36,329 nt of DNA from Fidelibacterota bacterium UBA1134. Lineage in GTDB: Bacteria > Fidelibacterota > Marinisomatia > Marinisomatales > S15-B10. Location of the stretch: contig DCAL01000051.1 of NCBI GenBank assembly GCA_002311975.1, forward strand, positions 8,699 through 45,027, read 5' to 3'. The position numbers and the translations under genes were made by a program. Below the pieces are notes generated by a model that made no database searches, was not told where the DNA came from, and worked only from the letters and a program-made list of their open reading frames with translations. Below are positions 16,440-32,516 of this stretch, one piece after another (the stretch's first letter is position 1; every line of letters begins with the position of its first letter).

Positions 16440-19400
16440 ATGAAGAATCAACGCTCGGTTATCCTCTTTGCGTTGCTATTGATAGTGTCGTTTCCTATCG
16501 CTCTATCTGCACAGAGCGGAGCAGTGGCAGGACGGGTAGCAGACCAAGAAGGCAACCCGCTGGCTGGTGCTAACGTGATAATTATCGGTACAAACCTTGG
16601 TGCAGCCACTGATGCCAATGGTGAGTATGATATAGACAAAGCACCCGTTGGTGAGTTCAAAGTGTCCGCTCACTATATCGGTTTCGCCACCAGCTCTCAG
16701 CAGATAACAGTTCTTGCTGGGACTGTTTCCGAGGCGAACTTCGCCCTGAGGCGATCAGCCATTGACCTGGAAGAGATCGTGGTCACCGGTACGGGTATTG
16801 CCATTGAGAGATCGAAAGTTGGTAACACCGTCGGCGTCATCAACATGGCCGAACTGGAGCTGGCGCCGGTCAGCTCTCTTGATCAGATTCTTACAGGCAG
16901 AGAGCCTGGTGTTCTGGTGAACCTGAACGGCGGCCTGGCTGGTGAAGGTGCTGAGATTCGCATTCGCGGTACATCCAGTATTTCTCAGTCGAACCAACCT
17001 GCCATCTATGTGGACGGTGTCCGCATGGACAACTCTACAAATGCAGGCGGCTACAACTGGAACGGCGGAGTGCCAGGGCGGATGAGCGAAATCAATCCTG
17101 ACGCCATTCAGAGAATTGAAATACTGAAGGGCGCTACGGCGTCGGCCCTCTATGGAAGTAAAGCTTCCAACGGGATCATTAATATTATTACGAAGCAGGG
17201 ATCTATTGGCCGACCGAAGTTTTCGTTCAAAATGGGTCAGACAACGGGCAGCTATAACGAAAGCCGCTACAAGGAAAACACCGGTTTTGGCAGAAGCGAG
17301 ACCTCGGCGGACAGGATGAAGCATATGTATGCAGCTGACGGCACAAATCCCGAAGGCGGCAGCTACTCCGGTAAACCGTGGGAAATTGTATCCATGCCCT
17401 TTTCCGGGATGCTGTACAATCAGGCGTCTGGCCAGACCATGTCGGCAAGCGTTTCCGGGGGAGCACCCGCAGCGACCTATTACGCCAATGTGCGCTATGA
17501 CGCGTATGACGGTCCCTTTGACAACAATGCAACGCTGGGTGGTTTACCCGTGGGTGACGGCACCGATACTGACAACAAGTTTATGGCTAACGCCACACTC
17601 AATATCATAGCCACGGATAAACTCCGTTTCAGAATCGGCACAGCTTACACGGGCCGTAAACAGAGCACCATTCAGAACAATAACAACATCTACGGTATTA
17701 CCTCTCTCATTCAGATGGGTAGGCCTGACTTTGCCACGTCACTCAGCTTTGGAGATGCTGTTGACAACTATACCGGTTCCTTTGCCTGGGCCACGGCGCG
17801 GGAAGTCACGAACCGTCAGCTCCACTCCGAGTCTGACAATACTCTGGTTACTATGAGCACGACGTACAAACCGGCTAGCAACCTCAATGTGAGAGGGACG
17901 TTCGGTATGAACATGACCAACGGCCGCGGTGAGAATTACATGCCGTATAACTGGAATGTGGATAATAAATCGAGTTACTACACGGCCGGCTATCTGGCCG
18001 TTGGGCGGCGGCAGCAGAAGGAGACGACTCTCGACGTAAAGGTTGACCATTCTCTACAGATGGGGAACCTGTCGTTTTCGACGCTGGCAGGATTCAACGC
18101 TAACCGCAAGGTTGTCAAGTTTATCGAAGGATGGGGCAATCAGTTCCCTGGCCCCGGCCTGTTGGTACTTGATGCGCTGAACGCACCAGCAGCCGGTTCA
18201 TACTTTGAAGAGGTCATCGAGGCTGGCTACCTGTTTCAGGAGACCATGGGAGTTGGTGAATACCTTTTCGCCACGGTCAGTGCCCGCTTGGACGCCACAA
18301 GCACGTTTGGAGAGGAGTTTTCGACCGTTACTTATCCCCGTGCAGGACTGTCGTATAGACTCTCTGAACAGTTAGGCGCACTGGGCCCAGTGAGTACACT
18401 TCGCCTGAGAGGGTCCTGGGGTCAGTCCGGCAACCAGCCGGGAGCTTTCGACAAGTACACAAGCTATAATCCATCCTCTTCCGTTGAAGGACCGGGTCTG
18501 CGACCCGGTAACGTAGGTAACCCGGCGCTGGGACCGGAGATCACAAGCGAGACAGAGTTTGGATTTGACTACGGTCTCTTAAATGATCGGATCGGTGGTG
18601 AGTTTGTCTTCTTCAGCAAGAGGACCACTGATGGATTGGTGCCGCAATCCTTTCCTCCTTCTGGCGGTTTTAGCTCTACCCAGCTGGTCAATATTGGTGA
18701 ATGGACGGCATCCGGGTGGGAGGCGTCGCTGGACGCGAACGTTACACGAACCAAGGCGGTGACCGTCGATGTGTTTGCCACCCTCTCCTACATGGAAGAC
18801 GAGTTGGTAAGCCTGGGCGGCGCCCCGGAGCAGAAAGTGGGCGGTTCTTATCCCCGTTACCGCAACTTCCTGACAGAAGGGTTCCCCATTGCGGCACTCT
18901 TCGGCACCAAGCTGCAGGATTGTGAATATCCTATTGATTCCAACGGTGATGGCGAGTGTGATGATAAAGCGACACTGCTGGCGTTTTTTGATACGGGTGA
19001 TCTCATGAACCTGCTCTCAGGGTGGAAGCCGGCCGTGGCTGTCCCGACGGACGCAGATGTAACAGCGAAGCGCGCCAAGACAGCTGGCGACCCGCTGGCG
19101 TGGTATCTCGGTAAACCGAGACCGGACTATACCGGCAGTTTCGGCATTAACATTACGCTCATGAACAATATTAGAATCAGTTCGCTTTTTGAGGCGCGCT
19201 GGGGCAACTATGGTTTGTCGAATTTGACGGATGCGTTCCGTAAGTCCAATCCGTACATCGGGCGCAACTTCTTTGGCTCCACGCAGACAGAGCGTGACTT
19301 CATGACGGGTGGCGTCAACAGTAATTACGAACCTCAGTATGATCCTGCGGCCCGCCTTGAAGCGGCAAAGACCTGGGTTACCACATACCAGTCTCTGTCG

Positions 19401-19691
19401 CCCTACAGCGGTCTAAATCTGATTGAAGATGGCGATTTCATCCGCTGGCGCGAGCTGAGCATTACCTACTCGCTGCCCAAGGAGATGGTGGCAAAGTTCG
19501 GCCTCAGCAATATGTCGTTCACTTTCGCCGGGCGTAATATTAAGATGTGGACTGATTACGCCGGTGTCGACCCCGAGCTAAATGCAGGCAGTGCGCAGGA
19601 CGGTGGCCTTGACATGTTCCGTGAGAGTATTGACGCCTTTGGTGTACCCGTGCCGAGGCTCTACACGCTCTCCGCGAACTTCGGATTCTAG
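16440..19691 (+). CDS. SusC/RagA-family TonB-dependent outer-membrane receptor
   Basis: 1083 aa with a signal peptide and AAGGAG 8 nt upstream. It has a carboxypeptidase-regulatory-like domain ('GRVADQEGNPLAGANVIIIGTNLGAATDANGEYDI') and a plug ('IEILKGATASALYGSKASNGIINIITK'). The C-terminus ends 'LSANFGF' with the terminal Phe. Confidence 0.92.
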   Translation: MKNQRSVILFALLLIVSFPIALSAQSGAVAGRVADQEGNPLAGANVIIIGTNLGAATDANGEYDIDKAPVGEFKVSAHYIGFATSSQQITVLAGTVSEANFALRRSAIDLEEIVVTGTGIAIERSKVGNTVGVINMAELELAPVSSLDQILTGREPGVLVNLNGGLAGEGAEIRIRGTSSISQSNQPAIYVDGVRMDNSTNAGGYNWNGGVPGRMSEINPDAIQRIEILKGATASALYGSKASNGIINIITKQGSIGRPKFSFKMGQTTGSYNESRYKENTGFGRSETSADRMKHMYAADGTNPEGGSYSGKPWEIVSMPFSGMLYNQASGQTMSASVSGGAPAATYYANVRYDAYDGPFDNNATLGGLPVGDGTDTDNKFMANATLNIIATDKLRFRIGTAYTGRKQSTIQNNNNIYGITSLIQMGRPDFATSLSFGDAVDNYTGSFAWATAREVTNRQLHSESDNTLVTMSTTYKPASNLNVRGTFGMNMTNGRGENYMPYNWNVDNKSSYYTAGYLAVGRRQQKETTLDVKVDHSLQMGNLSFSTLAGFNANRKVVKFIEGWGNQFPGPGLLVLDALNAPAAGSYFEEVIEAGYLFQETMGVGEYLFATVSARLDATSTFGEEFSTVTYPRAGLSYRLSEQLGALGPVSTLRLRGSWGQSGNQPGAFDKYTSYNPSSSVEGPGLRPGNVGNPALGPEITSETEFGFDYGLLNDRIGGEFVFFSKRTTDGLVPQSFPPSGGFSSTQLVNIGEWTASGWEASLDANVTRTKAVTVDVFATLSYMEDELVSLGGAPEQKVGGSYPRYRNFLTEGFPIAALFGTKLQDCEYPIDSNGDGECDDKATLLAFFDTGDLMNLLSGWKPAVAVPTDADVTAKRAKTAGDPLAWYLGKPRPDYTGSFGINITLMNNIRISSLFEARWGNYGLSNLTDAFRKSNPYIGRNFFGSTQTERDFMTGGVNSNYEPQYDPAARLEAAKTWVTTYQSLSPYSGLNLIEDGDFIRWRELSITYSLPKEMVAKFGLSNMSFTFAGRNIKMWTDYAGVDPELNAGSAQDGGLDMFRESIDAFGVPVPRLYTLSANFGF

Positions 19692-19721
19692 GATCAGGAA
19701 ATGAAAATCGGAGGAATTGAT

Positions 19722-21059
19722 ATGTTAGTCAAAATCAAAAAACTCTCGGCACTGTTCATCGTGCCCGGCGCCCTGATCTTGAGTCTGGGTACTGTGGGAT
19801 GTGACTTGGATGCAGAGAACCCCAACTCCCTTGTGGAGGACGACCTGACCAACCCTGCTGTGGCGGGAGCCCTTGCTAACGGCGCTCTCAACACACTCAG
19901 CCTCGGGACAGGATATGTACTGTGCCCCGTTTCGGTTGCCAGCGATGAGGCGACGTGGATTGGTTCCCGGGACGCATGGGGATCACTGGATAAAGGCCAG
20001 ATTTCAGACGTCTATAATGAGTTTGTGGACTTTGTCTGGCCGTATATTACTGAGGGACGGTGGATGTGCGACCGGGCCGTAACTGGACTTGAAGCGTTTA
20101 AGAGTGACGGCATTCTGAGCAATGATATCCTACTGGCGAAGGCTTATCTCTATGCCGGCGCTGTCAGGTGTGTTATTGCTGACAGCTTCGAGGATTTTGT
20201 CTATTCGGACAAGACGGTTTCCGGTCAGCCCATAGGGACGGGCAACATGATGCAGGTTTATGATGAGGCTATGACGCTCTTTAAGTCCGGCCTCGCCATT
20301 GCTCAGTCAGAAGGTGATACGGACCTGGAAGCGGTCTTCCACGGCATGCTGGCTCGTGCAGCGTTCTCCAAGGAAGTACACAGCAATATCGGCAACGCCG
20401 GTGGAGTTGTCACCGCCAGCATGGCCGCGTCACACGCCCAAGATGCACTGGACATCTGGGATGCAACATCCACGTGGCAGCTGCAATACTCTTCATCCAC
20501 CGTGTCGAATGAGTTCTCGTGGCAGATTAACGGGCGGTCTGAGCTTGAGTTCGGTTTCGACCCCGGCACGCAGGCGGGTGATGACCTTCCCGAAGACCTC
20601 ATTGATACAGATCTGAGTGTTAATGTTGTGGATCTTCAGGGTAACGACATGGGTCCTGCCGATCCGCGTTTGGCAGCCATTGCACTGGACTTCTTTTCGA
20701 ACCGCGGCGGAACGGACTATGCGCCCGTCACCATGGTTTCGGGAGCCGAAATGTACCTGATTCTTGCTGAGAATGCTTACGCCTCAGGCAATGACGATGA
20801 TGCGCTGACGTATCTCAACATGAACAGGACAGGCATGACAGCTTACGACGGCAGCAACGCCTCAGTGGCTGATGCTATAGTGCATGAGCGCCGCGCAAAC
20901 CTCTACGCGCAGGGGAAGCGTCTTCTGGATATGTACCGCTTTGGTGCAACATCGGTGCTGTGGGAATCTCAGTATGATGCACTCGGTTCTCCGGGTAGCC
21001 TGTTCCCTATCACCATTCAGGAGATCAGGGCGAACGAATTTGTGCTTCAGCCCGGATAA
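19722..21059 (+). CDS. SusD/RagB-family nutrient-binding outer-membrane lipoprotein
   Basis: It lies immediately downstream of the susC-like gene. The lipobox is 'LSLGTVGC'. The C-terminal SusD signature reads 'HERRANLYAQGKRLLDMYRFG ... FPITIQEIRANE'. I chose the start at 19722 because GGAGGA lies 7 nt upstream; the track ORF begins at 19701. Confidence 0.8.
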   Translation: MLVKIKKLSALFIVPGALILSLGTVGCDLDAENPNSLVEDDLTNPAVAGALANGALNTLSLGTGYVLCPVSVASDEATWIGSRDAWGSLDKGQISDVYNEFVDFVWPYITEGRWMCDRAVTGLEAFKSDGILSNDILLAKAYLYAGAVRCVIADSFEDFVYSDKTVSGQPIGTGNMMQVYDEAMTLFKSGLAIAQSEGDTDLEAVFHGMLARAAFSKEVHSNIGNAGGVVTASMAASHAQDALDIWDATSTWQLQYSSSTVSNEFSWQINGRSELEFGFDPGTQAGDDLPEDLIDTDLSVNVVDLQGNDMGPADPRLAAIALDFFSNRGGTDYAPVTMVSGAEMYLILAENAYASGNDDDALTYLNMNRTGMTAYDGSNASVADAIVHERRANLYAQGKRLLDMYRFGATSVLWESQYDALGSPGSLFPITIQEIRANEFVLQPG

Positions 21060-21123: not shown

Positions 21124-21158
21124 GTACTGTGACGGCAAAGGTCTGTAAATTATCACTC

Positions 21159-21824
21159 ATGGGGAAGTTGCGCCAACAGACAGTTGCTCTCTATCTGGCG
21201 GGGACAGTTTTTCTCACCTTAGCTCCAACAGTTTCGCTGGCGGAAAAGGGTGCAGGGAAGCCTGTTGTGGCATTTATCGGTGCTGAGCTCGAGGGCATTC
21301 CTGAACCACACCACAAGAGACTGTTAGAGCGGCTTGATAATCTCTTCTCGGAACAGAAAGGGTATCTGTATATGGGGCCTGAGGCTGTGATCTCATCGGT
21401 TGATCATTCCATGGTGATGAAGGCCCTTGCCACAAGAGAGAAGGAACTGCTTCTTGCGTTGGCGGACACAATCGGCGCAGATTATCTTTTTATGGCAAAG
21501 CTAAAAAATCGCTCGGATGAGCCGGGCCGCGTCATGCTGGTAGGAGATGTGGCGCGCTTTGACTGTAGCAATGGACAGTTGTACAGGGTGGAAGTTCTCA
21601 AGTATGTAGAGAACGTGGGAGTGGAACTGGCCAGAATCAGACTTAATCTGGTTGATACCATCATGGAAGATACCAAAGCGTCAGCCAACACAATCTTGTG
21701 GGTCTTTGCAACTATTGCCTTTTTGGGCGCGCTGATGCTGTTGTTGCTGAAGACTGAAGTTAAGTTGGGCGGTGAGGGGACTGGCGGTGATGGTGGTACG
21801 GGCGATCCGACAATGATTCAGTGA
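21159..21824 (+). CDS. Hypothetical secreted protein with C-terminal transmembrane anchor and Gly/Asp-rich tail
   Basis: The signal peptide is 'MGKLRQQTVALYLAGTVFLTLAPTVSLA'. It is followed by a ~150-aa soluble domain, a TM helix 'ILWVFATIAFLGALMLLLL' and the tail 'GGEGTGGDGGTGDP'. I recognise no family. The start could also be the GTG at 21129. Confidence 0.5.
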   Translation: MGKLRQQTVALYLAGTVFLTLAPTVSLAEKGAGKPVVAFIGAELEGIPEPHHKRLLERLDNLFSEQKGYLYMGPEAVISSVDHSMVMKALATREKELLLALADTIGADYLFMAKLKNRSDEPGRVMLVGDVARFDCSNGQLYRVEVLKYVENVGVELARIRLNLVDTIMEDTKASANTILWVFATIAFLGALMLLLLKTEVKLGGEGTGGDGGTGDPTMIQ

Positions 21825-21859: not shown

Positions 21860-23470
21860 ATGAATGATAAGACCAGACAACCCGATAAACAGTCAGCCAG
21901 TGATCCGGGAACAAGACTCGGACGGCGGGACGTCTTAAAGGCTCTTGCGTCAATTCCGGCCATGGCCCTGTTTGTCTATGAACTGCTGAAAAAGAGAGCA
22001 TTTGATGGATTGAGAAAGCTGAACATCCTCTCCGAGCTAGGGGCGCCCATGGAGGCGCCGGCTGTTGTACCTCCCAGGGCATCGGGAGAACTGATTCGGC
22101 TCGGTATCATAGGCTATGGCGGCAGAGGGGAACACCTTACGAGGGGCGCCGGCTTCGCACACTCTGACTGGACAGAGAGAAAAGCGGCGGACGCCAAGAA
22201 GAACAGGCTCGACAAGGCTTTTGAAACATTCATGAAGCAGCAGGATTTGAATGTTGTCATAAACGGCGTCTGCGACCTTTTTGATGTGCGTGCTGAAAGG
22301 GTCATGGCTGCCTCCAAAAATGATCTCAGGCCAGGCGCGGGCACACGGACACTTACAGAGGCAAGACGGTACAGACACTACACAGAGCTCCTTAACAGCA
22401 AGGATATTGATGCTGTCATTGTGGCTACTCCGGATCACTGGCATTCGCGCATAACGATAGATGCTCTGGAAGCTGGCAAGCACGTCTACTGTGAGAAATG
22501 TATGACACGGACTATCGAGGAAGCATTTGCGGTCCGCAAAGCAGTAAAGAGGACAGGAAACGTGTTTCAGCTGGGGCATCAGAACAGGCAGGTAGAAACA
22601 TATGAGCAGGCGAGAAGAATTGTTGAGAGCGGGATACTGGGCCTTGTGACGCTTGTTGAGGTAACCACAAACCGCAATTCACCCGGCGGAGCATGGGTGT
22701 GGGGTATCCATCCGGACGGAAACCCAAAGACCATCGACTGGCAGACATTTCAGCAGCCGTCACCTAACAAGGTGCCGTTCAGCCTGGAGAGATTCTTCCG
22801 CTGGAGGTGCTGGTATGATTACGGCACGGGACTGTCGGGAGATCTGTTTTCCCACGAATTTGACGCTTTCAACCAGATAATGAACGTGGGCATTCCCAAG
22901 TATGCCGTTGCCAGCGGCGGTATTTACCGCTATAAGGACGGCCGCGACGTGCCGGATGTTTTTCAGGTGACATTCGAGTATCCCGACAAAAACCTGACAT
23001 TGATCTACAGTTCGACGCTGGCGTCAGGGAGAAACCGGGGAAATCTATTTATGGGACACGATGCAACCATGCAACTCGGCAATGAGGGGTCAGCTTCCAG
23101 CAGTCCGTTGAGCGTGACGGCTGATCATCAGTCAACAAGGTTCAGGCAGAAAATCGATAGTGGCGAGATCAGTACTTCACTGCCGCTTTTCGCCTACAGT
23201 CCTGGATCGAGGCAAATTGACGGAATTACATCCGCCAGCGCAAAATATTTTGCCAGCAAAGGGCTTGTATATACGTATCGTGGCGGCAAAAGGGTTGACC
23301 CCACGCATCTTCATATAAAGGACTGGTTAGATGGAATCCGCCACGGCACAACACCCAGATGTAACATTGATGTAGGTTTTGAAGAGGCTATTGCGTGCCA
23401 TATGGCCACCAAAGCTTTTCTGGAGGGCAGGCGGGTGGAGTGGGATTCAGTGAATGAAAAAGTGATTTAG
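21860..23470 (+). CDS. Gfo/Idh/MocA-family NAD(P)-dependent oxidoreductase with twin-arginine N-terminus (paralog A)
   Basis: 536 aa. The Tat motif is 'GRRDVLKALASIPAMALF'. The Rossmann start is 'IRLGIIGYGGRG', followed by 'DAVIVATPDHWH' and the EKP-type motif 'YCEKCM'. It is highly similar to the gene at 28993..30657. Confidence 0.9.
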   Translation: MNDKTRQPDKQSASDPGTRLGRRDVLKALASIPAMALFVYELLKKRAFDGLRKLNILSELGAPMEAPAVVPPRASGELIRLGIIGYGGRGEHLTRGAGFAHSDWTERKAADAKKNRLDKAFETFMKQQDLNVVINGVCDLFDVRAERVMAASKNDLRPGAGTRTLTEARRYRHYTELLNSKDIDAVIVATPDHWHSRITIDALEAGKHVYCEKCMTRTIEEAFAVRKAVKRTGNVFQLGHQNRQVETYEQARRIVESGILGLVTLVEVTTNRNSPGGAWVWGIHPDGNPKTIDWQTFQQPSPNKVPFSLERFFRWRCWYDYGTGLSGDLFSHEFDAFNQIMNVGIPKYAVASGGIYRYKDGRDVPDVFQVTFEYPDKNLTLIYSSTLASGRNRGNLFMGHDATMQLGNEGSASSSPLSVTADHQSTRFRQKIDSGEISTSLPLFAYSPGSRQIDGITSASAKYFASKGLVYTYRGGKRVDPTHLHIKDWLDGIRHGTTPRCNIDVGFEEAIACHMATKAFLEGRRVEWDSVNEKVI

Positions 23471-23780
23471 CCTGAGTTACAGGACTTGAGTTAAGAATCC
23501 GAGGAGGAGAGTTGACTTAAGGACTAGGAAATCAGCACCATCGCTCTTAACTCGCTGAATCCTTCAAAAACGGCGTTACCTTGCCAGGGCCGTGAACGCC
23601 CTGCTTTCAGTATGGCGTTCTTTGATCTCCGCCTTAAAGGACGCGGCTATGTATGGAATAGTTCTCATGAATTTCGCCAGGAGGCCCAGGCCTATAATGA
23701 TTATCCAGAGTTAATGGCGAGGGGGCAGTTTAACCATCTGGTGAGAGTGGCGGTCTTTTACTTTTCTGTCCCATCTCGGC

Positions 23781-24731
23781 CTAACCGAGTTCAGTCCGAA
23801 CCCGCTCTAATAGTGTCTTCGTCGCCTTAATTCCGTCCATTTCACTGAACCCGTCCCCCTCGTATTCCACGCCTACATAGCTGCTGTAGCCGGCATCGAG
23901 GACAATATTCATCATCTGAACGTAGTCAGTGTGAATTTCATTGCCGTCTGAATCGAAGTCGTGGCTCTTGGCACTGACGGCTTTGGCATAGGGCATGAGT
24001 TCGGAGACCCCCTTATAGCGGTCGTATTCATCAAAACAGTCCCCTTCCCACAATCCGGGCCCTGACTTCTGAACACAAAAATTTCCAAAGTCAGGCAGCG
24101 TACCGCATCCTGGATGATCTACTTTCTTAATCACATTAGAGAGCCACTGTCCATTGCTGGAGAGACCACCGTGGTTCTCTACAATAACCTTGATGTTCTT
24201 CCGATCTCCAAATTCTGTCAGGCGGCGCAGCCCGTCCGCTGCTAGTTTCATCTGTTCCTCATAGGTTCCGTCGCTTCGGGCGTTGACCCTTATGGAGTGG
24301 CAGCCGAGAAACTTCGCCGCCGTCACCCATTTGTAGTGATTCTCGATGGCCTGTTTGCGGGCTGATTCATCTGGATCCCCGAGGTTTCCTTCAGAATCGC
24401 ACATGATGAGCAAACTCTTGACGCCTTCGCCGTCAGCGCGGGAAACCATCTCTTTCAGGTAGTCTTTGTCTTGCGCCTTTTCAAAGAAGAAAGTATTTAC
24501 ATATTCCACCGCATCAATGCCAAATTCTCCTCTGGCGATCTTAGCGAAATCGAGATGATTGATCTCGCCGCTCCATAAAGCCCTATGAAGAGACCACTCA
24601 GCCAAGGATATTTTGAACAATGGTTCTTCTACCCGGCTCGATAATCTCGTGCCCGGTAATCCCATGACAGTCAAACCTCCGGCAAGTGTGACGGACTGTT
24701 TCAGGAATGCCCGCCTGTCTATTATTTCCAT
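23781..24731 (-). CDS. Xylose-isomerase-like TIM-barrel protein (sugar phosphate isomerase/epimerase family, AP_endonuc_2) with Tat signal
   Basis: 316 aa. The Tat motif is '[16 protein letters not shown]'. Metal-site-like motifs are 'VIVENHGG', 'LPDFGNF' and 'YVGVEYEG'. GGAGGA lies upstream of the start. Confidence 0.88.
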
Positions 24732-24763
24732 TTCTTTTCCTCCTCGATTCTCCCAGAATTTAG

Positions 24764-25822
24764 TTGATTTGTCCCGTGCTTAGAACACTCTTTATTTTCA
24801 CCTCTTTCTGGTTTCTGATGTCATCCTGTGGCGAGTCGAAACGCGAAATTGTGCTTAACGGAAGAACTATGGGCACCACCTATCAGATAAAGTTATTATC
24901 ACAGCAAGGCTTGAGAGCTGTGGGAGTTCTGAAAACGGAGATCGACTCCGTCCTTGCCCAGGTAAACAGGCAGATGTCCCTCTACCAGTACGGCAGCGAG
25001 ATCAACGCCTTCAACCGCTCTTTATCCACAGAAGCGTTTGCGGTTTCTGAAGAATTCGCGTTTGTCCTTGGCAGGGCCCTCTACTGGTCAGCCGTGACAG
25101 ACGGGGCCTTTGATGTGACTATATTCCCACTTCTTTTTCTCTGGGGATTCGGGCCGGGCCAGGAGACAGACCCTCTTACCGTGTTTCCGGACAAGACCAC
25201 CGTTCAGAACAAATTGGTACATGTGGGGTACGGCAAGCTGAAGGTAGTGCAACAGACGCTGATTAAGAACGATCCCCATGTAAGGATTGATCTTAACGCC
25301 ATCGCCAAAGGTTTTGGCGTAGACGCTGTTTACGACTATCTTCAGTCTCAGGACGTTGCTCATATGATGGTGGAAATTGGCGGCGAAGTGCGCGTTAGAG
25401 GGAAGAATCAGAACGGCCATTCCTGGACCATTGCTATCGAGTGCCCCCATCTGTCCGCTGATTCGGAGAGGACTTTTGATTGGATCTGTGAATTGAAAGG
25501 AGGTGCTGTGGCAACGTCAGGGGATTACAGGAATTTCTTTGAAGTGGACGGCGAGGTTTTCTCACACGAGATCGACCCAACAAGTGGCTATCCTGCCAAA
25601 ACTAAAGTGGCCTCCGCCACCGTCACTGCTCCTAATTGTACTGATGCTGACGCGCTGGCCACTGCCCTCATGGTGATGGATGTTAACGAAGGGATGAAGC
25701 TCGTAGAATCACTTCCGGAGGTGGAGGCGTTCCTGCTGGTGAGGGAGTCCGCCAGTCAGTTTACATCCCGCCGCAGCTCCGGCATGACCATTAGGGCCGT
25801 TGGAAAGGACTCAGATAGGTAG
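24764..25822 (+). CDS. apbE: ApbE-family FAD:protein FMN transferase, lipoprotein type
   Basis: 352 aa. Motifs: '[10 protein letters not shown]', '[14 protein letters not shown]', '[17 protein letters not shown]', '[15 protein letters not shown]', '[11 protein letters not shown]', '[14 protein letters not shown]', '[11 protein letters not shown]', '[13 protein letters not shown]'. A TTG start gives the signal plus lipobox 'FWFLMSSC'. Confidence 0.92.
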
Positions 25823-25824
25823 CG

Positions 25825-26457
25825 CTATTCCAGCGCTTTCACGTAGATATTCCGGAAGGAAACGGTGGTGTCCCAGTCGTGGTTCTGGAGACCGATGTAA
25901 CCTTCGCCGGCGAAGTCCCTGATTTTCCCTCGCGGTTCAGCTTCCCAGTCCACGACCTTTTCGCCGTTCAGTTCCACTTGAATCCGCTTGCCTTGAAAGA
26001 TGATCTTGTAGTGGTTCCATTCCCCGCCGGGCTTTGACGCGTTTTTGCTGGCCGGTTCCGCATCGTAAACGGCAGCGGTCCTGTGGAGGGCTTCCTCTGC
26101 CGCATCATTGATCTGCACCTCAAACGAGTGATAGATGTATTCATTGCTTGATGGCATCTCGGGAACCCGCAGGAAAATGCCCGAATTGGCCTCAGGATGG
26201 GAACTCCTGAAATCGAGCTCCAAGATGAAAGCCCCGTACTTTCTTGCACTATACCAGAACAGGCCCATGCCTCCGTGGGAGGTGATGATGCCTGTCTCCC
26301 TATCTAGATCGAAGTAGCCGGGCCCGTAGTGATTCCATCCATGTTTGGAATAGACACCTTCGTGCTCCGAGAGTATTCGCTCAAATCCTTCCTTTTCAGG
26401 CGCAGATGCACACGAAGTCATGAACAACAGAACGATAAGTGATAGCCAACGCAGCAT
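25825..26457 (-). CDS. DUF1080 (3-keto-disaccharide hydrolase family) lipoprotein
   Basis: 210 aa. The lipobox is 'LLFMTSC'. Family motifs are 'YGAFILELDFR...ANSGIFLR', 'FEVQINDA', 'GEWNHYKIIFQGKRIQVELNGEKV' and 'GYIGLQNHDWDTTVSFRNIYVK'. AAGGAG lies upstream. Confidence 0.88.
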   Translation of the reverse strand: MLRWLSLIVLLFMTSCASAPEKEGFERILSEHEGVYSKHGWNHYGPGYFDLDRETGIITSHGGMGLFWYSARKYGAFILELDFRSSHPEANSGIFLRVPEMPSSNEYIYHSFEVQINDAAEEALHRTAAVYDAEPASKNASKPGGEWNHYKIIFQGKRIQVELNGEKVVDWEAEPRGKIRDFAGEGYIGLQNHDWDTTVSFRNIYVKALE

Positions 26458-26472
26458 AGTCAGAGTACTCCT

Positions 26473-27723
26473 TTATGATTCTTTCGGATTCCATTCCCCC
26501 TTCGCCACCGCTGGGATGAACGTCTCAAGGCTTGGAGGCGGGAATAGGATGGTCTTGTCTTGTTCGGCGCTCATGTAGGCGGTCATGAGGAGTTCCGTTA
26601 CGTTCAAGCCGTCGCTGAAGTTTTCTTCCGGTCTCTTTCCCGCCAGAAACGACTGCACCATGTGACGATTCTCAGCCGTATAGCCATAGGCCTCCGTCTC
26701 GTTGCTCACCACAGGCATTTCGCCCGACTCAGCGTTCTGTTTCTCCACCAGATCCTCGCTCTGAGACCCCGTCACATTGCGGCTGAAGAAGACGCGAAGA
26801 TCAGAATCGAGTGTATTGACAAACATGGAATACTCCGGGCCGAACAGTTCCAGACTGAGCCTCAGTCCCGCTCCTACAAAGCACCACGATGTGGTGGTCT
26901 CCACAACAATCTTTTCATCATCTTGATTGACATATTCGATGAGTGATCTGGCAAAGTCTTCTGAAGGTTTCTTGGTGTAGTCCGTCTTGCCGCCGCTGTT
27001 GTCTGAAAGGATTTTCGCATACTTGGGCCGCTGCCATTTCAGGCAGGCGGCGTAAGCGTTCACGCTGACCGGGGTCAGCACATCCCGTCTAGCGCCGGGG
27101 GGCGTCAGCATGAATCGGGCCTCTTCTACCGAGTGACACATCATATCATTCAGCACGCCGCCGCCCTGCAGTTCCCCCTCCCAGAACCACGGCATGTGCG
27201 GCCCGCTGTGCTCTTCCGCGGCGCGGGCGAGGTAGGGCGGTCCGGTGAGGGCAGCGCCCCGGGCCCAGACGATCTCTTTGCCGCGCGTCACCGATGGTGC
27301 AAAAATCTGATTCTCTAAATAGCCGTCCAGAAGATTGGAACTCTGAGCCAATTCCAGCATCTTGCGGGCCTCTGCCACATTACGTCCGAGCGGTTTTTCA
27401 CAGGTAACACCAATCAGTTCACCTTTACCTGTTTCAATGGCATGTACGATCTCCTCCATCACTTCAATACGGGTAAAGTTGGGGGCACAAATCCACAATG
27501 CATGAATATTGTTATCGGCAACCATATCGGTAATTGAATCATAGGCTTTGGCATCTCCGACACCAATTTCTCTGGCAAGTATTGCTGCTTCTTCCGCTGT
27601 ATCACGCGACTTTGAAACGACTCCTAGTACATCTGCATCTCTAACACCTATCAAGGACTTAATATGAAATCTGGCGATAAATCCACCACCGATAAAACCT
27701 ATGCCTAATCGTTTTTCCCCCAT
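26473..27723 (-). CDS. Gfo/Idh/MocA-family oxidoreductase, cytoplasmic (no signal peptide)
   Basis: 416 aa. The Rossmann start is 'LGIGFIGGGFIARFH', followed by 'ALWICAPNFTR' and the 'CEKPLG' EKP motif. The C-terminal alpha/beta domain is typical. Confidence 0.9.
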   Translation of the reverse strand: MGEKRLGIGFIGGGFIARFHIKSLIGVRDADVLGVVSKSRDTAEEAAILAREIGVGDAKAYDSITDMVADNNIHALWICAPNFTRIEVMEEIVHAIETGKGELIGVTCEKPLGRNVAEARKMLELAQSSNLLDGYLENQIFAPSVTRGKEIVWARGAALTGPPYLARAAEEHSGPHMPWFWEGELQGGGVLNDMMCHSVEEARFMLTPPGARRDVLTPVSVNAYAACLKWQRPKYAKILSDNSGGKTDYTKKPSEDFARSLIEYVNQDDEKIVVETTTSWCFVGAGLRLSLELFGPEYSMFVNTLDSDLRVFFSRNVTGSQSEDLVEKQNAESGEMPVVSNETEAYGYTAENRHMVQSFLAGKRPEENFSDGLNVTELLMTAYMSAEQDKTILFPPPSLETFIPAVAKGEWNPKES

Positions 27724-27729
27724 TAGATG

Positions 27730-28944
27730 TTATACCGATTGCAACTCTGCTGCAGTTGCTTTATGATCATCCTTAAAAAACAAAAGAAAGACAAAAGCCA
27801 TTACGGTACATAGCATCGCTGGTATTAAAAAGAATTTCCACCAGATTGTTGAACCATCTGCTAGTTTGAAAGTATCCCATATATACCCAGTAAATAATGT
27901 CCCTAAGTAATTACCGACACCTAAGGTGAAGAAGGTAAGCATAGCTTGGGCCGAAGCACGCATATCATCACTGGCCTTCATATTTACATAAATCTGAGAC
28001 GTAACGAAGAAAAAGGCGTAACCAAAACCATGTAGTGTAAGTGATCCAATAATAACGGATAAATTAGGTACCATAAACAAAAAGTATCTGATTGGCCAAG
28101 CCAAAATTCCAATCACCATTGTAAGCCTAACACCCAATTTCTGTATGGATACATGTAATAAGAAAAGCAACACCACAACTTCCGCGATCTGTGCAACTGT
28201 TTTTATAGCCGTTAGCCAAGCTTCTTCTGCGCCCATATCTAACAGAAATGGGGCTGTAGGTATATAATAAAATTGCAGTTCTGTTGTTACGGCAAATGAA
28301 GCCATCATAAAGATCAAAAAATTCCTATCTTTAAGCAACGAGAGCGCTTCAAGAAATGCAAGTGGATTATTTTGGCTGGCTACTGGCGGTGTTTTAGGTA
28401 AGGTGAAGCAAAACATGCCCATAATAATTGATGTAACTGCAGCAAACATTAATAAGTCGCTTCCGCCAGTCCAATTTTCGGTGTGCCATTGACTGCGCAT
28501 GAAAGTGACCACCCAGCCGACAGAAATCCACCCAATCGTGCCCCACATACGTATCTTGCCAAACTCTACTTCAGCATTCTCAAGATTCCGAAAACAAATA
28601 GAGTTTGTCAGCGCAAGGGTGGGGGCATAAAAAAGGCAATAAATAAACATCCAGGTCCACATTGGAACAAATTCTTGCTGGACAGCAGTAAAATAAAGAA
28701 GAACCCCACCCAAGAGGTGGGCGACTCCCAAGAATAATTGTGTCGGCAGTAATCGATCAGCGATCTGACCACCAATGAAAGGTGCAATTATACAGCCCAG
28801 CCACAAACAACCATATATAGCCGCGATCTCGCTACCGGCAAACCCCAGCTTATCTAAATGTGCGCCAAGGGCAGTAGTCCATGATCCCCAAATGGCATAC
28901 TGCAAAAACATCATGATACCAAAACGTGTTTTTCTATCACCCAT
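27730..28944 (-). CDS. MFS transporter, nucleoside:H+ symporter (NHS)-like subfamily
   Basis: 404 aa, about 12 TM segments. The N-terminus 'RFGIMMFLQYAIWGSWTTALGAHL' is typical of Nuc_H_symport-type MFS permeases. It lies 6 bp upstream of the next gene in the operon. Confidence 0.82.
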   Translation of the reverse strand: MGDRKTRFGIMMFLQYAIWGSWTTALGAHLDKLGFAGSEIAAIYGCLWLGCIIAPFIGGQIADRLLPTQLFLGVAHLLGGVLLYFTAVQQEFVPMWTWMFIYCLFYAPTLALTNSICFRNLENAEVEFGKIRMWGTIGWISVGWVVTFMRSQWHTENWTGGSDLLMFAAVTSIIMGMFCFTLPKTPPVASQNNPLAFLEALSLLKDRNFLIFMMASFAVTTELQFYYIPTAPFLLDMGAEEAWLTAIKTVAQIAEVVVLLFLLHVSIQKLGVRLTMVIGILAWPIRYFLFMVPNLSVIIGSLTLHGFGYAFFFVTSQIYVNMKASDDMRASAQAMLTFFTLGVGNYLGTLFTGYIWDTFKLADGSTIWWKFFLIPAMLCTVMAFVFLLFFKDDHKATAAELQSV

Positions 28945-28992
28945 TTTGATATACCCGCCTATTATTTAATGTGTAGTACTAAATAATTTACT

Positions 28993-30657
28993 CTAAACGA
29001 TTTTCCTTTTGACTGGGTCCCATTCCACTCTACGGCCCTCCAAATACGATTGGGTAGCCATGTGGCAGGCTACAGCTTCCTCGAATCCTTCTTCAATATT
29101 ACATTTTGGCTCTCCGCCGTATCGAATGCAATCCAGCCAGTCTTTCACATGAAGATGGGTGGGATCGACCCGTTTCCCTCCGCGATAGGTATAGACGAGA
29201 CCTTTCTGTGCAAAGTATTTTGCTGTGGCTGAAGTAATGCCGTCGATATCCTTTGACCCCGGCGAATAGCTGAACAGCGGCAGAGCGGTGTTGATGATAC
29301 CTTCCTCGATCTTACTCTTGTAGCGTGTGGATTGAGGATCGGGCGTAACGGTAAGACCACCGCCCACTTCCATGGTAGCGTCATGTCCCATGAACACCTT
29401 GCCGCGGTGACGGCTGTTTGCCAGAGAGGCGCTGTAAACAAGCGTCAGCCCCCTATCGGGATACTCGAAGATGGCCTGAAATGTATCTGGCACGTCCCTG
29501 TCTTCCTTGATTAAGTCAGGGAATCTCTCTTTGGTGTAGTAATAGATGCCGCCCGAGGCGGAGGCACTTTTTGGAATGCCAAGATCCATGATTTGATTTA
29601 CGGCGTCAAAGTCGTGAGATAGAAGATCGCCTGAGAGTCCTGTTCCATAGTCGTACCAGCAACGCCAGCGAAAATACCGCTCCAAGTTGAAGGGGTGCCT
29701 GTTAGGGGCCGGCCCCTGCCACATGTCCCAATCAAGACTTTTCGGTGTGGCATACTGTTCCTTAGACGCATAGGTCTGCCACACATCTTCGATGGAGTTC
29801 CACTGTATGGGATAGACCCAGGCTCCGCCGGGGCTGTTGCGGTTGGTGGTAACTTCAACCAGAGTCACCTGTCCCAGGATATCATTTTCGATCATTTCGC
29901 GCGCTTTTTCATGGCTGGATGAAGCCCTGCTGTGATGTCCCAGTTGAAACTTTAAATCACTTTTCTTTACCGCATCATAAACATCAATAGCCTCGCTCAT
30001 TGTACGAGTCATGCATTTCTCGCAATAGATATGTTTGCCGGCTCGCACAGCATCAAGGGTTATTTTTGCGTGCCAGTGGTCCGGTGTGGCGATTATTACA
30101 GCGTCAATGTCATCACTGGCAAGGAGATCCTGATAGTTACGGTACCCTTTGGCAGGCTCGGACTGGACCACTCCCCCCGGTCTTACGTCATTAGTCGATG
30201 TGGCAATTCCCTGCTCTCTTCTGGTATCAAAAACATCGCACACACCGGCCAGCTCAAGGTTTAGGTCTTCCTGACTCAGGTAGGTTTCCAGCCGCTTATC
30301 GAGTCTGTTCGCGTTAACTGCCTCTCTGGCTTTCGCCACCCACTCGGGACTGGCAAATCCTGCCCCCTTTGCAACTGCGGCACCTCGCCAGCCGTAGCCG
30401 ATGACCCCTAAGCGTATCAGTTCGTTTTTCTTTCGTGATTTCAGGACAGCGGGAGCTTTCTTGCTCTGGCCCAGTTCAGACATAACCTGAAGCCTTCTCA
30501 TACTGTCCAGAGCGCTCTTCTTTATGTAGTTGTAAAGAAAGAGGGCTAAAGCTGGTATGGTAGCTAAGCCTTTTATAATGTCTCTTCGACTGAAGCTTGG
30601 TTCATCTTGGGAATCAGGACTAACGGTATTTAATTTTCGCTCGGATGGATCTGTCAT
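28993..30657 (-). CDS. Gfo/Idh/MocA-family oxidoreductase with twin-arginine N-terminus (paralog B)
   Basis: 554 aa. Motifs: 'FSRRDIIKGLATIPALALF', 'IRLGVIGYGWRG', 'DAVIIATPDHWH', 'YCEKCM'. The C-terminal ~90 aa are nearly identical at protein level to paralog A, while synonymous sites differ. Confidence 0.9.
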   Translation of the reverse strand: MTDPSERKLNTVSPDSQDEPSFSRRDIIKGLATIPALALFLYNYIKKSALDSMRRLQVMSELGQSKKAPAVLKSRKKNELIRLGVIGYGWRGAAVAKGAGFASPEWVAKAREAVNANRLDKRLETYLSQEDLNLELAGVCDVFDTRREQGIATSTNDVRPGGVVQSEPAKGYRNYQDLLASDDIDAVIIATPDHWHAKITLDAVRAGKHIYCEKCMTRTMSEAIDVYDAVKKSDLKFQLGHHSRASSSHEKAREMIENDILGQVTLVEVTTNRNSPGGAWVYPIQWNSIEDVWQTYASKEQYATPKSLDWDMWQGPAPNRHPFNLERYFRWRCWYDYGTGLSGDLLSHDFDAVNQIMDLGIPKSASASGGIYYYTKERFPDLIKEDRDVPDTFQAIFEYPDRGLTLVYSASLANSRHRGKVFMGHDATMEVGGGLTVTPDPQSTRYKSKIEEGIINTALPLFSYSPGSKDIDGITSATAKYFAQKGLVYTYRGGKRVDPTHLHVKDWLDCIRYGGEPKCNIEEGFEEAVACHMATQSYLEGRRVEWDPVKRKIV

Positions 30658-30678
30658 GATTTAATCCCCTCTAATTTG

Positions 30679-31176
30679 CTAACGGCGTAATCTTTGAAGA
30701 AATCTGTCCAATCCTGTAATATGCCCTGTTGGAAATTTGGCCAGAACAAACAGTGCACATGCCTCCACCAGATTTTTGTCAATTAACAGATAACTTCCTT
30801 CAGTAGGTTTGGAGTATTCCAATCCTACCAAGGGCGGATGAAAAAGATAATAGAGAAGAAGAAGAAGCGCTCCGGCGAGGCTGCCCCAGCGTGAAAACAG
30901 TCCGCACATCAAGCTTAGCCCGATGGCGGTAAGTCCCCACATATTGAGGTGATCCACAATGTTCAGTGTGCTGGGATTGGAGACGAGTGAGTTGGCGATA
31001 CCGGAAAGGGCCCATTTGGTATCTAACAGAAAGGCCGCTGAAGACCAGTGCGGATTGGAAAGCTTGGCTACACCCTCATACAGAAAGTGCCACCCGATAA
31101 GGACCCGGAGCAATGACAATCCGATTAGTTGACTGTTGCTATATTCTGAGGAGAGCGGTTCTGACTTGCTGCTCAT
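30679..31176 (-). CDS. DoxX-family integral membrane protein
   Basis: 'LLRVLIGWHFLYEGVAKL' followed by 3-4 TM helices fits DoxX (RxxxGxxFxxxGxxK). I chose the start at the ATG at 31176 (165 aa). The track ORF extension to 31413 runs through the divergent promoter region and looks spurious. It is the first gene of the minus-strand operon, 21 bp before paralog B. Confidence 0.7.
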   Translation of the reverse strand: MSSKSEPLSSEYSNSQLIGLSLLRVLIGWHFLYEGVAKLSNPHWSSAAFLLDTKWALSGIANSLVSNPSTLNIVDHLNMWGLTAIGLSLMCGLFSRWGSLAGALLLLLYYLFHPPLVGLEYSKPTEGSYLLIDKNLVEACALFVLAKFPTGHITGLDRFLQRLRR

Positions 31177-31370: not shown

Positions 31371-32516
31371 ATGAAGCATCGAATCGTATTAATTGGCGCA
31401 GGAAGCGCAACATTCGGTCTCAGCACTAATGGTGATATCCTGAAGAATAACGCCTTGGAAGGGAGCACCATCGTTCTGCACGATATAGATGCCAAAGCGT
31501 TGAGTTGTGTGGCGGAAATCTCGCAGCAGTATGTATAAGAAAAAAGTCTCCCCTATAAGGTAAAATCTACTCTATCAAGAGAAGAGGCGCTTCAAGGCGC
31601 AGACTTTGTAATTATCTCCATTGAAGCGGGTGATAGGTTTGCCCTCTGGGAACAGGACTGGAAGATCCTCCTGGAATACGGTTTCAAGCAGATCTATGGT
31701 GAAAACTGCGGGCCCGGTGGGATCTTTCACGCGTTGCGCATAATTCTGCCCATTCTGGAGATCTGTGAGGATATCCAGGCCCCCGCTGCCCGCAAGCTTT
31801 TGTATTCAACTTCAGTAACCCCATGACCAAGATCTGTCACACAGTACCGTGAGTCAGGGAAGGACGCGTATCCAGAGATCCTTGAGAAGGCTCCTGACTA
31901 CTTTCCCACGGCAGAGGCTTCCATGGGCGTCGTGGAGGAGAGGTCCCTATTCCTGGAAATCGTGAGCTTGTACAGGGTGCTGCCGATAACGACAGACAGC
32001 CATTTTGGAGAATACATCGGCTGGGCGTGGGATGTGGCCGATCATGACGGGACCAAGGAGTTCTATAGCAGATACAGGAAGTACATGCTTTTCAACAAAG
32101 GTCTCCCTGCTGAACGTCTTCAGCGGGGAACGGAAGAAGAGGAATTCTGGCGCGTGGTTCACATTATAGCTGGGATTGTTGCTGATTCAGGGCATGAAGA
32201 ATTAGCGGTGAACATCCCAAATGACGACTTTATTGAGGCCCTGCCGCGGAATCAGATCGTTGAAGTGCCGGCGGTGATAGACCGGAACGGCACTAAGGGC
32301 ATCAGGCTCGATTCTTACCCGAGGGTATTTTCAGGTCTGCTCCAGAGCGAGGAGCCCCTCCATGACCGGCTTACCGAAACAATCCTCACAAGATCGAAAG
32401 AGGCGGTTTTGCAGACACTGCTGTTGGACCCGGTGGTGGACAGGGTTCAGCTGGCAGAAGACCTGCTAAACAGGGTGCTCGATTTACAGACGCCGTATCT
32501 TGATTGTCTGCAATAA
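31371..32516 (+). pseudogene. Glycoside hydrolase family 4 (NAD+/Mn2+-dependent alpha-glucosidase/galactosidase-like) pseudogene
   Basis: The N-terminus 'MKHRIVLIGAGSATFG...GSTIVLHDIDAKAL' runs into an in-frame TAA at 31536-31538. Homology resumes in the same frame ('EEALQGADFVIISIEAG...GENCGPGGIFHALR'). It then shifts frame near the C5 run at 31780-31784 ('CPQAFVFNFSNPMTKICH', TGA at 31850-31852). It shifts back for the C-terminal half ('DAYPEIL...LPITTDSHFGEY...LAVNIPNDDFIEALPRNQIVEVPAVIDRNG...LLLDP'). The total span is only 382 codons against ~440-480, so internal sequence is also missing. Confidence 0.85.

Follow-up and report, generated by a model that had tools for sequence, protein, structure and literature searches.

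A Tat-exported sugar dehydrogenase family with a predicted flavinylation motif and a recurring DoxX partner: a candidate sugar:quinone oxidoreductase

How does a dehydrogenase that is exported with its NAD(P) already bound dispose of the electrons it takes from a sugar? The question is raised by a gene cluster in the stretch of DNA analysed here (the window), i.e. 36,329 nt of Fidelibacterota bacterium UBA1134 (GCA_002311975.1, contig DCAL01000051.1, 8,699-45,027 of the forward strand), in which genes were identified from a listing of open reading frames (ORFs) and by Pfam scans. The cluster encodes two long Gfo/Idh/MocA dehydrogenases with twin-arginine translocation (Tat) signals, a flavin transferase of the ApbE family and a small membrane protein of the DoxX family. 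A first-pass annotation of the window had proposed that a covalently attached flavin mononucleotide (FMN) and the membrane protein lead electrons from bound NAD(P)H to the quinone pool. We read the cluster as a periplasmic glycoside-oxidation pathway of the BT2156-2160/AL1-4 type, served by SusC/SusD, in which the bound NAD(P)H would be reoxidised via covalent FMN to quinone at DoxX; we put the probability of this complete mechanism at about 0.55. The narrower claims, namely that the Gfo proteins are clients of ApbE and that DoxX is their functional partner, are in our opinion somewhat more probable. The novelty of the cluster, as we propose, lies in how its first enzyme is reoxidised.

Long Gfo A (21860..23470, +; 536 residues) and long Gfo B (28993..30657, -; 554 residues) are paralogues with 58% identity. 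Both are predicted ApbE clients, and Gfo B is the predicted partner of DoxX. Pfam scans found the Rossmann domain PF01408 in the two proteins (65.4 and 57.9 bits against a cut-off of 24), together with the C-terminal domains PF22725, PF02894 and PF19051. In alignment A1 the glycines G84, G87 and G89 of the GxGxxG motif, the EKP-type pair E213-K214 (the Lys of an EKC sequence) and D344xxxH348 are invariant, so that a Rossmann domain and a C-terminal domain with the catalytic Lys and DxxxH place the proteins in the Gfo/Idh/MocA family. Gfo B has more than 4238 homologues, and the family as a whole is strongly conserved, with a mean column identity of 63%. An AlphaFold2 model of Gfo B built from 25 sequences (mean predicted local distance difference test score, pLDDT, 69) matched structures of the Gfo family with a probability of 1.0.

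The twin-arginine motifs, read from the translations, lie at 21920..21940 (+; GRRDVLK, Gfo A) and 30571..30591 (-; SRRDIIK, Gfo B), and a third (DRRAFLK) lies at 24699-24719 in the gene of a xylose-isomerase-like TIM barrel; on recomputation all three stood exactly where the first-pass annotation had put them. They agree with the Tat signal [ST]-R-R-x-F-L-K followed by a hydrophobic region. The arginine pair is invariant in alignment A1, as is K29, and the pattern was matched in 108 of 120 homologues. The N terminus of Gfo B has moderate hydropathy and is modelled as a single long helix (residues 24-61).

Among solved structures the best match of the long Gfo proteins is the Alistipes glucoside 3-dehydrogenase AL3 (8tdf, E = 1e-31), which covers the central region only. 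The best NCBIfam match is the BT_2158_fam glycoside 3-dehydrogenase family (NF058561; 118.3 and 118.6 bits over ~200-240 residues), and since 118 bits compares with a cut-off of 750, the long Gfo proteins are relatives rather than members of that family. The C-terminal 155 residues had no match in the solved-structure search, and it is this part that carries the motif described next.

It is conspicuous that both long Gfo proteins contain the segment IDGITSA[ST]AKYF about 80 residues before the C terminus. The recognition motif of ApbE is D-x-x-[S/T]-G-A-[S/T], with FMN on the last residue and a dispensable Asp (PMC12052999). A motif scan placed the predicted flavinylation motif DGITSAS of Gfo A at 23219..23239 (+), with Ser460 as the putative acceptor in a column that is conserved in the homologues, and DGITSAT of Gfo B at 29224..29244 (-), with Thr478 as the putative acceptor. 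Both sequences fit five of the six specified positions of the ApbE motif (two are free), Ser replacing Gly. The acceptor motif was found in none of the remaining cluster proteins; the TIM barrel, the DUF1080 protein, DoxX and a 231-residue protein encoded upstream of Gfo A, none of which carries it, were thus rejected as ApbE clients. A perfect canonical motif (DEHTGAT) occurs in the window at 13205-13225 (+), in a 1094-residue BNR/sortilin-repeat protein (12599-15883), where it is probably a chance match.

The pattern D..[ST][GSA]A[ST] was found in 116 of the 120 best homologues, the other four having DTVTTAT, EAVTSAT, DAITSPT and EGVTSAS, i.e. Ser or Thr is kept at the acceptor position in all 120. 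The motif is also present in each of the 75 complete Gfo proteins encoded next to doxX in the genome loci described below and, at the same place, in every full-length representative scoring above ~350 bits once the library had been clustered at 50% identity. P0136 and P0138 (39-42% identity), the farthest removed of the relatives that bear the motif, show the canonical DAVSGAT at this alignment position. Lower-scoring relatives have lost both Asp and Ala of the motif and still have Ser or Thr in the acceptor column. As a background, D..[ST][GS]A[ST] matched three times in the 293,107 residues of 823 neighbouring non-Gfo ORFs, which corresponds to 0.006 matches per 550 residues. In the model of Gfo B the motif falls within a loop (467-494) where pLDDT stays under 50; from 477, at the acceptor, the chain is helical. 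Such low values would suit a flexible, exposed loop and prove nothing.

The second regularity concerns the gene order. One genome per GTDB species (185,579 species genomes) was scanned, which gave 568 loci with a relative of the long gfo; the best 80 were analysed, and these span Marinimicrobia, Aminicenantes, Gemmatimonadota, KSB1, Latescibacterota, Calditrichota, Acidobacteriota and Zhuqueibacterota. According to tblastn searches with the window proteins, doxX lies immediately upstream of the long gfo and on the same strand in 76 of the 80 loci, from at least eight phyla. In the remaining four the sequence starts with gfo or shortly ahead of it, so that doxX is present in all 76 informative loci. 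The median gap between the two genes is 17.5 bp, and 4-bp overlaps are numerous. Recurring as it does in 80 loci from many phyla, the arrangement is more than a matter of chance.

An adjoining doxX was also found with four of five more distant relatives. In three of them (P0125, P0126 and P0130, 41-45% identity) it lies directly upstream of gfo although the contexts are unrelated (Nramp, peptidases, DJ-1). Directly downstream of P0138, one of the two relatives with the canonical SGAT motif, there is an uncalled ORF at ~9540-10020 (+) of locus L082 that matches the DoxX profile with E = 3e-30. P0136, the other one, has no doxX within 8 kb. Since doxX persists at distant relatives in unrelated contexts, we regard the doxX-gfo pair as the core unit and apbE as a frequent third member. 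We note that in the L082 case the small DoxX membrane protein has apparently been missed by gene callers.

The DoxX-family protein of the window (30679..31176, -; 165 residues; PF07681, 32.7 bits against a cut-off of 23.6) is encoded by the first gene of its operon and is the predicted quinone-side partner. Its hydrophobic segments lie at 17-33, 79-95, 103-119 and 130-150, and with this score and about four transmembrane segments it belongs to the DoxX family; no relative of it was found among solved structures or in NCBIfam. Its conserved residues include IGWH..YEG and YY..PP. Two precedents connect the family with quinones. DoxD is a subunit of thiosulfate:quinone oxidoreductase (PMC8551704), and the NADH dehydrogenase (Ndh2) of flavinylation-dependent extracellular electron transfer is a fusion of Pyr_redox_2 and DoxX (supplement of PMC8238504). 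The doxX frame stays open for 79 more codons, to 31413 (244 residues, as in public gene calls, which are probably over-extended). We place the start at 31176 because homologues of 158-187 residues support an internal start.

The third element is the ApbE itself. The window's apbE (24764..25822, +; PF02424, 277 bits) encodes a lipoprotein-type FAD:protein FMN transferase. It matches V. cholerae ApbE (6nxi) with E = 5e-74; the Ser of TSGDY and the His of SHEID align with identical residues, and the Asp of TDADALAT falls opposite an Asp whose spacing is that expected of Asp285 in the V. cholerae enzyme (the numbering Ser241/His257/Asp285 was taken from the ApbE review). The domain and the intact Ser, His and Asp active-site residues make it a member of the ApbE family, while the E. 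coli equivalog NF007774 is matched with 213 bits, below its cut-off of 498. The start codon is TTG, and only this start yields the lipoprotein-type N terminus, i.e. a hydrophobic stretch and then MSSC. Other gene callers chose later ATG starts.

A metagenome scan with the window's ApbE gave six loci, mostly short. In the species genomes, apbE lies within 10 kb of the long gfo in 32 of the 80 loci. When the count is confined to the 29 loci whose sequence covers at least 4 kb on the upstream side and at least 6 kb on the downstream side, the figure is 16. By our own estimate the chance expectation is ~1-2%, at 1-3 apbE genes per 3-5 Mb genome. The first-pass annotation had let its hypothesis hang on whether the apbE/doxX adjacency is conserved in relatives, and the adjacency did prove to be conserved. 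Moreover, apbE occurs in three arrangements, each in a separate set of loci. It is convergent with the DUF1080 gene in the window and in five Marinimicrobia loci (ApbE 49-63% identical to that of the window), divergent from doxX in twelve loci, mostly of Aminicenantes (28-34%), and co-directional, in the order apbE-doxX-gfo, in fifteen loci, most of them of Gemmatimonadota, with Acidobacteriota (L068) in addition (27-32%). As the ApbEs of the last two classes are just 27-34% identical to that of the window, different ApbE lineages are involved. The co-directional genes can be very tightly packed: in L055 (CP070812.1) apbE (8395-9447) overlaps doxX (9438-10001), which in turn overlaps gfo (9998-11614).

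The ApbEs of Marinimicrobia and Aminicenantes have lipoprotein-like N termini. In the 13 full-length ApbEs of the co-directional class (two of the fifteen genes are cut by a contig end) no lipobox or twin-arginine motif precedes the conserved MGT, and the three that were tested by hydropathy reach maxima of 0.6-0.9 (15-residue windows, first 60 residues). The flavin sites of NQR and RNF are, as far as is known, modified outside the cytoplasm. A housekeeping role for NqrB/C or RnfD/G is hard to reconcile with a co-directional ApbE that has no signal peptide. Cytoplasmic ApbEs are known (PMC12052999), and a signal-less ApbE in one operon with a Tat substrate fits a scheme in which the folded Gfo would be flavinylated before export. 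In accordance with the first-pass annotation, no classical client gene (Nqr, Rnf, NosR, FMN_bind) was found in the window, nor in the 10 kb on either side of it on the source contig, and ORF clustering revealed no Nqr, Rnf, FMN_bind or cytochrome family that recurs among the neighbours of the 80 loci. That a housekeeping apbE should stand here by chance was rejected as the main explanation, since apbE is found in three independent arrangements and, in one of them, overlaps its neighbour and encodes a signal-less protein.

Relatives with a degenerate motif were expected to be without apbE. Two of three have in fact an adjoining apbE, and no doxX: next to P0140 (motif RAETSDT; L097, 7001-9673) a Tat-signal apbE lies 76 bp downstream, and next to P0146 (motif RTNAQPS; L096, 960-2852) there is an apbE fragment at the contig end. 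The apbE association may thus reach beyond the motif-bearing clade.

A further protein was seen at some of these loci. In L012 a gene at 8173-9105 (-), between apbE and doxX, encodes a protein that has a NusG_II domain at its C terminus and probably a Tat signal (MERRDFFKK) at the other end. ORFs of this family were found in 11 loci, mostly of Aminicenantes. NusG_II proteins also adjoin apbE in Firmicutes flavinylation clusters (supplement of PMC8238504).

Taken together, the acceptor motif and the conservation of doxX and apbE lend strong comparative support to the hypothesis of an ApbE- and DoxX-coupled Gfo. We infer from them the following route. SusC/SusD would take in a glycoside or an oligosaccharide. 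Both long Gfo proteins would be exported by Tat in the folded state, with NAD(P) already bound, and would probably be held at the membrane by the N-terminal helix. There they would oxidise a hydroxyl of the sugar, most likely at C3 of the glycoside. ApbE would link FMN to the flexible C-terminal loop through a phosphoester with Thr478 in Gfo B or Ser460 in Gfo A, so that hydride could pass from the bound nicotinamide to the tethered FMN, and from the reduced flavin electrons would go to quinone at the DoxX protein with its four transmembrane segments. The TIM barrel and the DUF1080 protein would cleave the resulting 3-keto-glycoside, and the keto-sugar would be imported by the permease of the major facilitator superfamily (MFS) and reduced by the cytoplasmic Gfo. 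With quinone as the electron sink, the unfavourable step from alcohol to NAD would in effect become irreversible, and energy would be conserved.

The alternative that survives best is an ordinary, redox-neutral 3-keto-glycoside pathway, which we consider unlikely. It says that 3-ketoglucose or another sugar takes the hydride from the bound NAD(P)H, that the T-S-A-T loop is structural or binds the substrate, that the ApbE serves NQR or RNF, and that DoxX is an unrelated partner, e.g. an anchor or a stress protein. Recycling of this kind, with 3-ketoglucose regenerating the tightly bound NAD, has been proposed for AL3/BT2158 by authors who also left room for reoxidation by 'specialized proteins', a point in favour of our own reading (10.1101/2024.03.25.586180); the redox-neutral cycle is a sufficient published explanation for a related Tat-exported Gfo, and the first-pass annotation overstated its case in calling the periplasmic cofactor problem unexplained by known chemistry. 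A tightly bound cofactor in an exported enzyme is also known in the glucose-fructose oxidoreductase (GFOR) of Zymomonas (PMC8121099).

Several observations weigh against flavinylation and quinone coupling, and those on the Ser in the motif, the general conservation, the missing apbE and the affinities of the window's ApbE speak at the same time for the redox-neutral pathway. Throughout the core clade Ser stands at position 5 of the motif, where Gly is canonical. We know of no natural ApbE substrate with Ser at this position. In favour of the motif, a Gly-to-Ala change at this place still leaves ~50% of flavinylation (PMC12052999). The motif segment is not a cryptic FMN_bind (PF04205), DUF2271 or DUF3570 domain, as the segment had no Pfam match of any kind even at E = 10. 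Since the whole family is conserved throughout, motif conservation taken alone is weak evidence and counts as approximately one evolutionary event. The AlphaFold2 model is poor around the motif, and the reach of the flavin to the nicotinamide is thus a proposal. No apbE was found within 10 kb in 13 of the 29 loci with both flanks, nor in the loci of either SGAT-type relative (P0136 and P0138). DoxX proteins are without a solved structure or a demonstrated quinone site. Finally, the window's ApbE is nearest to the NQR-maturing ApbE of V. cholerae, and nqr and rnf are present in some Marinimicrobia (PMC8359207); it may therefore serve several clients or be a shared housekeeping enzyme.

What the redox-neutral pathway leaves unexplained is the pattern across genomes. 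It gives no reason for three independent apbE arrangements in different phyla, with ApbE lineages 27-34% identical to that of the window, or for an overlapping apbE-doxX-gfo operon with a signal-less ApbE. It does not account for the canonical SGAT in the same column of distant members, nor for the near-obligate pairing with doxX across gene contexts, and no classical ApbE client recurs nearby. For these reasons we prefer the flavin- and DoxX-coupled mechanism.

A second alternative accepts flavinylation of the Gfo and gives the electrons another destination: they would go to a soluble periplasmic carrier, to oxygen or to an extracellular acceptor, or the direction would be the opposite one, with electrons from the membrane reducing a keto-sugar in the periplasm. 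ApbE-flavinylated proteins do serve many extracytosolic electron routes (PMC8238504), and two of the relatives described above would be compatible with such a route, namely P0140 (L097), which has a cleavable-looking Tat signal, an adjoining apbE and no doxX, and P0136, which has the SGAT motif and no doxX within 8 kb. In the core clade, however, doxX always stands immediately before gfo, often overlapping it, and the family is tied to quinone chemistry through thiosulfate:quinone oxidoreductase and the Ndh2 fusions. Reverse flow from quinol to NAD(P) is, as is generally known, thermodynamically uphill. We therefore rate this second alternative as rather improbable, somewhat below the redox-neutral pathway. 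A third one, in which the cluster ApbE would be a flavin-trafficking FAD pyrophosphatase of the Treponema Ftp type that supplies free FMN or riboflavin with no covalent attachment, is very improbable: such ApbE/Ftp enzymes exist (PMC4767422), but the window's ApbE is nearest to a proven FMN transferase and keeps Ser, His and Asp, the signal-less cytoplasmic ApbE of the Gemmatimonadota operons would have no obvious role in periplasmic flavin supply, and there is an acceptor-like motif on the neighbouring enzyme.

We now return to the other genes that the preferred mechanism, with electrons passing over FMN to DoxX, would draw on. All genes that the first-pass annotation had named were found again in the ORF listing and the Pfam scans, with the domains it had given, and the intergenic distances were equally exact. 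On the minus strand the operon runs doxX-gfoB-MFS-signal-less gfo-DUF1080, with gaps of 21, 48, 6 and 15 bp. The TIM-barrel gene and apbE are divergent with 32 bp between them, and apbE and the DUF1080 gene are convergent with 2 bp between them.

The MFS permease (27730..28944, -) belongs to the nucleoside:H+ symporter family (Nuc_H_symport, 307 bits; TIGR00889 is matched with 260 bits, below its cut-off), and tblastn found it in 62 of the 80 loci. The signal-less, presumably cytoplasmic Gfo/Idh/MocA protein (26473..27723, -; PF01408) has no signal or hydrophobic segment and is a candidate 3-keto-sugar reductase; it was found by tblastn in 53 of the 80 loci and is 67-81% identical across phyla. 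The DUF1080 (3keto-disac_hyd) lipoprotein, encoded by the last gene of the doxX operon (25825..26457, -; PF06439, 132 bits against a cut-off of 26.8), is a clear member of its Pfam family and matches weakly the AL2/BT2157-type structures 8tda and 8tde (E ~5e-6). The Tat-signal TIM barrel (23781..24731, -; AP_endonuc_2, 90 bits; DRRAFLK) is a candidate 3-keto-glycoside lyase. It matches the uncharacterised structure 4ovx of the Protein Data Bank with E = 2.7e-118; this was its only solved structure at E < 1e-5, and a match to an AL1/BT2156-type lyase structure was not detectable.

DUF1080 was found by tblastn in 45 of the 80 loci. In the ORF clustering, the TIM barrel forms a separate gene in 14 loci and DUF1080 in 22, and in 28 loci the two are fused into a protein of ~490 residues with an AP_endonuc_2 and a DUF1080 part (e.g. 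L028, 14347-15819, and 27 other loci). By the Rosetta-stone argument, such a fusion speaks for a joint action of the TIM barrel and DUF1080.

The functional unit reaches to the left of the cluster as it was first delimited, and takes in three more genes that are co-directional with Gfo A, with successive gaps of 9, 69 and 35 bp in the row susC-susD-hyp-gfoA. The first gene, susC (16440..19691, +), encodes a SusC-type TonB-dependent outer-membrane transporter (CarbopepD_reg_2, Plug, TonB_dep_Rec_b-barrel), and susD (19701..21059, +; SusD_RagB, 42.6 bits), 9 bp after it, encodes a SusD-family lipoprotein; an adjacent susC/susD pair is the mark of a polysaccharide utilisation locus. The third gene (21129..21824, +) encodes the 231-residue protein. 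It has hydrophobic segments at 19-37 (N-terminal, signal-like) and 189-207 (a C-terminal anchor), no Pfam or NCBIfam match and no homologue among the 80 related loci, and it may or may not belong to the system.

To the right of the doxX operon, a gene for a GH4-family glycosidase (31416-32516, +) is interrupted by two in-frame stop codons, and only the C-terminal ORF of 197 residues (31923-32516; Glyco_hydro_4C) stays open. The truncation is not a sequencing error, as the same short ORF (194-197 residues) is found in three independent assemblies. GH4 enzymes likewise work by NAD-dependent oxidation at C3 and elimination. In the 10 kb beyond the right-hand end of the window there are genes for GH3, GH32 and FG-GAP/UnbV_ASPIC proteins, and in the 10 kb beyond the left-hand end there are housekeeping genes near dnaN and gyrBA. 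Within the window, dnaN, a DciA-family gene, gyrB and gyrA lie at 1934-7955 (+), with yidC, mnmE, mnmG and mfd preceding them on the contig; the same was seen in L092. Since dnaN, the DciA-family gene, gyrB and gyrA are grouped in the same window, the sugar cluster is close to a gene set that is typical of the region of the replication origin. The nearest homologues carry the annotation Candidatus Marinimicrobia.

A wider generalisation can be advanced tentatively, at a little under even odds. The large clade of Tat-exported, NAD-dependent Gfo proteins (568 loci in 185,579 species genomes, at least eight phyla) would be a new class of ApbE client, in which a mobile C-terminal loop with covalent FMN carries reducing equivalents from the buried nicotinamide to quinone at an obligate DoxX protein of four transmembrane segments. 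The two proteins would then make up a sugar:quinone oxidoreductase that needs neither haem nor iron-sulfur clusters. A cytoplasmic ApbE would act before export in some phyla, and, because apbE also adjoins P0140 and P0146, relatives whose motif is degenerate may be modified as well. Tat-exported Gfo/Idh/MocA proteins are very numerous in polysaccharide degraders, and a tethered flavin together with DoxX would, if true, be a concrete answer, for one large clade, to the question of how a cofactor is regenerated where the periplasm offers no nucleotide pool, a question that even the groups behind the BT2158/AL3 pathway did not close. Cleaving glycosides via 3-keto intermediates would then be a respiratory process that conserves energy, and the widespread, poorly understood DoxX family of membrane proteins would gain a role. 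The host groups concerned (Marinimicrobia, Aminicenantes, Gemmatimonadota, KSB1) are abundant uncultured recyclers of carbon.

It remains to compare the cluster with known systems. The closest are the 3-keto-glycoside pathways BT2156-BT2160 of Bacteroides thetaiotaomicron and AL1-AL5 of Alistipes, which have the same set of enzymes in the same compartments, i.e. a Tat-exported Gfo dehydrogenase, a secreted TIM-barrel lyase, a DUF1080 lipoprotein acting as lyase/hydratase and a second, cytosolic Gfo (PMC8121099; 10.1101/2024.03.25.586180). Unlike here, the published descriptions of these clusters list no doxX, apbE or MFS permease. Moreover, the similarity of the long Gfo proteins to BT2158/AL3 is confined to the central part, and the C-terminal 155 residues with the motif have no counterpart there.

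The known ApbE clients (NqrB/C, RnfD/G, NosR, PplA, DUF2271, DUF3570) share with our cluster the presence of apbE, a motif like D-x-x-[ST]-x-A-[ST] on an exported redox protein and an encoded membrane partner (PMC8238504). In contrast to these clients, the putative acceptor here lies within an NAD-dependent Rossmann dehydrogenase, has Ser for Gly and is not accompanied by an FMN_bind, DUF2271 or DUF3570 domain. Gfo/Idh/MocA proteins are not listed as ApbE clients in the 2021 survey of flavinylation clusters (PMC8238504, its supplement being available in part) or in the 2025 ApbE review. Full-text searches found no literature that links ApbE, flavinylation or DoxX to Gfo/Idh/MocA, the partly available supplement of PMC8238504 being inconclusive in this respect; the first-pass annotation, which knew of no described ApbE-dependent Gfo/Idh/MocA system, was thus in agreement with the searched literature. 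If the proposal is true, the range of ApbE clients would widen to a Rossmann-fold dehydrogenase and a Ser-containing motif, which bears on surveys of 'orphan' ApbEs and on flavin-tagging technology.

GFOR of Zymomonas mobilis was detected as a structural relative of the long Gfo proteins. It is not known to carry a flavin motif or to have a membrane partner of its own. It is, like them, a periplasmic, Tat-exported Gfo/Idh/MocA protein, with tightly bound NADP (PMC8121099). Unlike the proposed system, GFOR is a soluble enzyme in which a second sugar is reduced to restore the cofactor.

The respiratory glucoside 3-dehydrogenases LacABC and ThuAB share the proposed physiology. LacABC-type enzymes are of the FAD/GMC type, and ThuAB includes a Gfo-like subunit. 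As is proposed for our cluster, they oxidise glycosides to 3-keto-glycosides in the periplasm, and the electrons go to the respiratory chain (PMC8121099). The protein families are different, however, and LacABC and ThuAB depend on cytochrome c (PMC8121099), whereas no cytochrome recurs in the gfo clusters.

On the membrane side, DoxD and the DoxX domain of the Listeria-type Ndh2 belong to the same Pfam family as our DoxX and are likewise paired with an oxidoreductase that exchanges electrons with quinone, the Ndh2 fusion occurring in flavinylation clusters. They differ in that DoxX is here a separate protein of 165 residues, with a periplasmic NAD-dependent sugar dehydrogenase as its partner and no DoxA.

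The co-directional operons of Gemmatimonadota find their counterpart in the cytoplasmic ApbEs of the NADH-dependent fumarate, acrylate and cinnamate reductases of Klebsiella and Vibrio. In those reductases the covalent FMN relays electrons from the NADH-oxidising part, and the clients carry an FMN_bind domain. There a signal-less ApbE flavinylates a soluble client (PMC12052999), as the signal-less ApbE of the Gemmatimonadota operons is proposed to do. Those clients remain cytoplasmic, whereas ours would leave by the Tat route once modified; if a Tat substrate is indeed the target of a signal-less ApbE, this would be a new sequence of steps in cofactor assembly.

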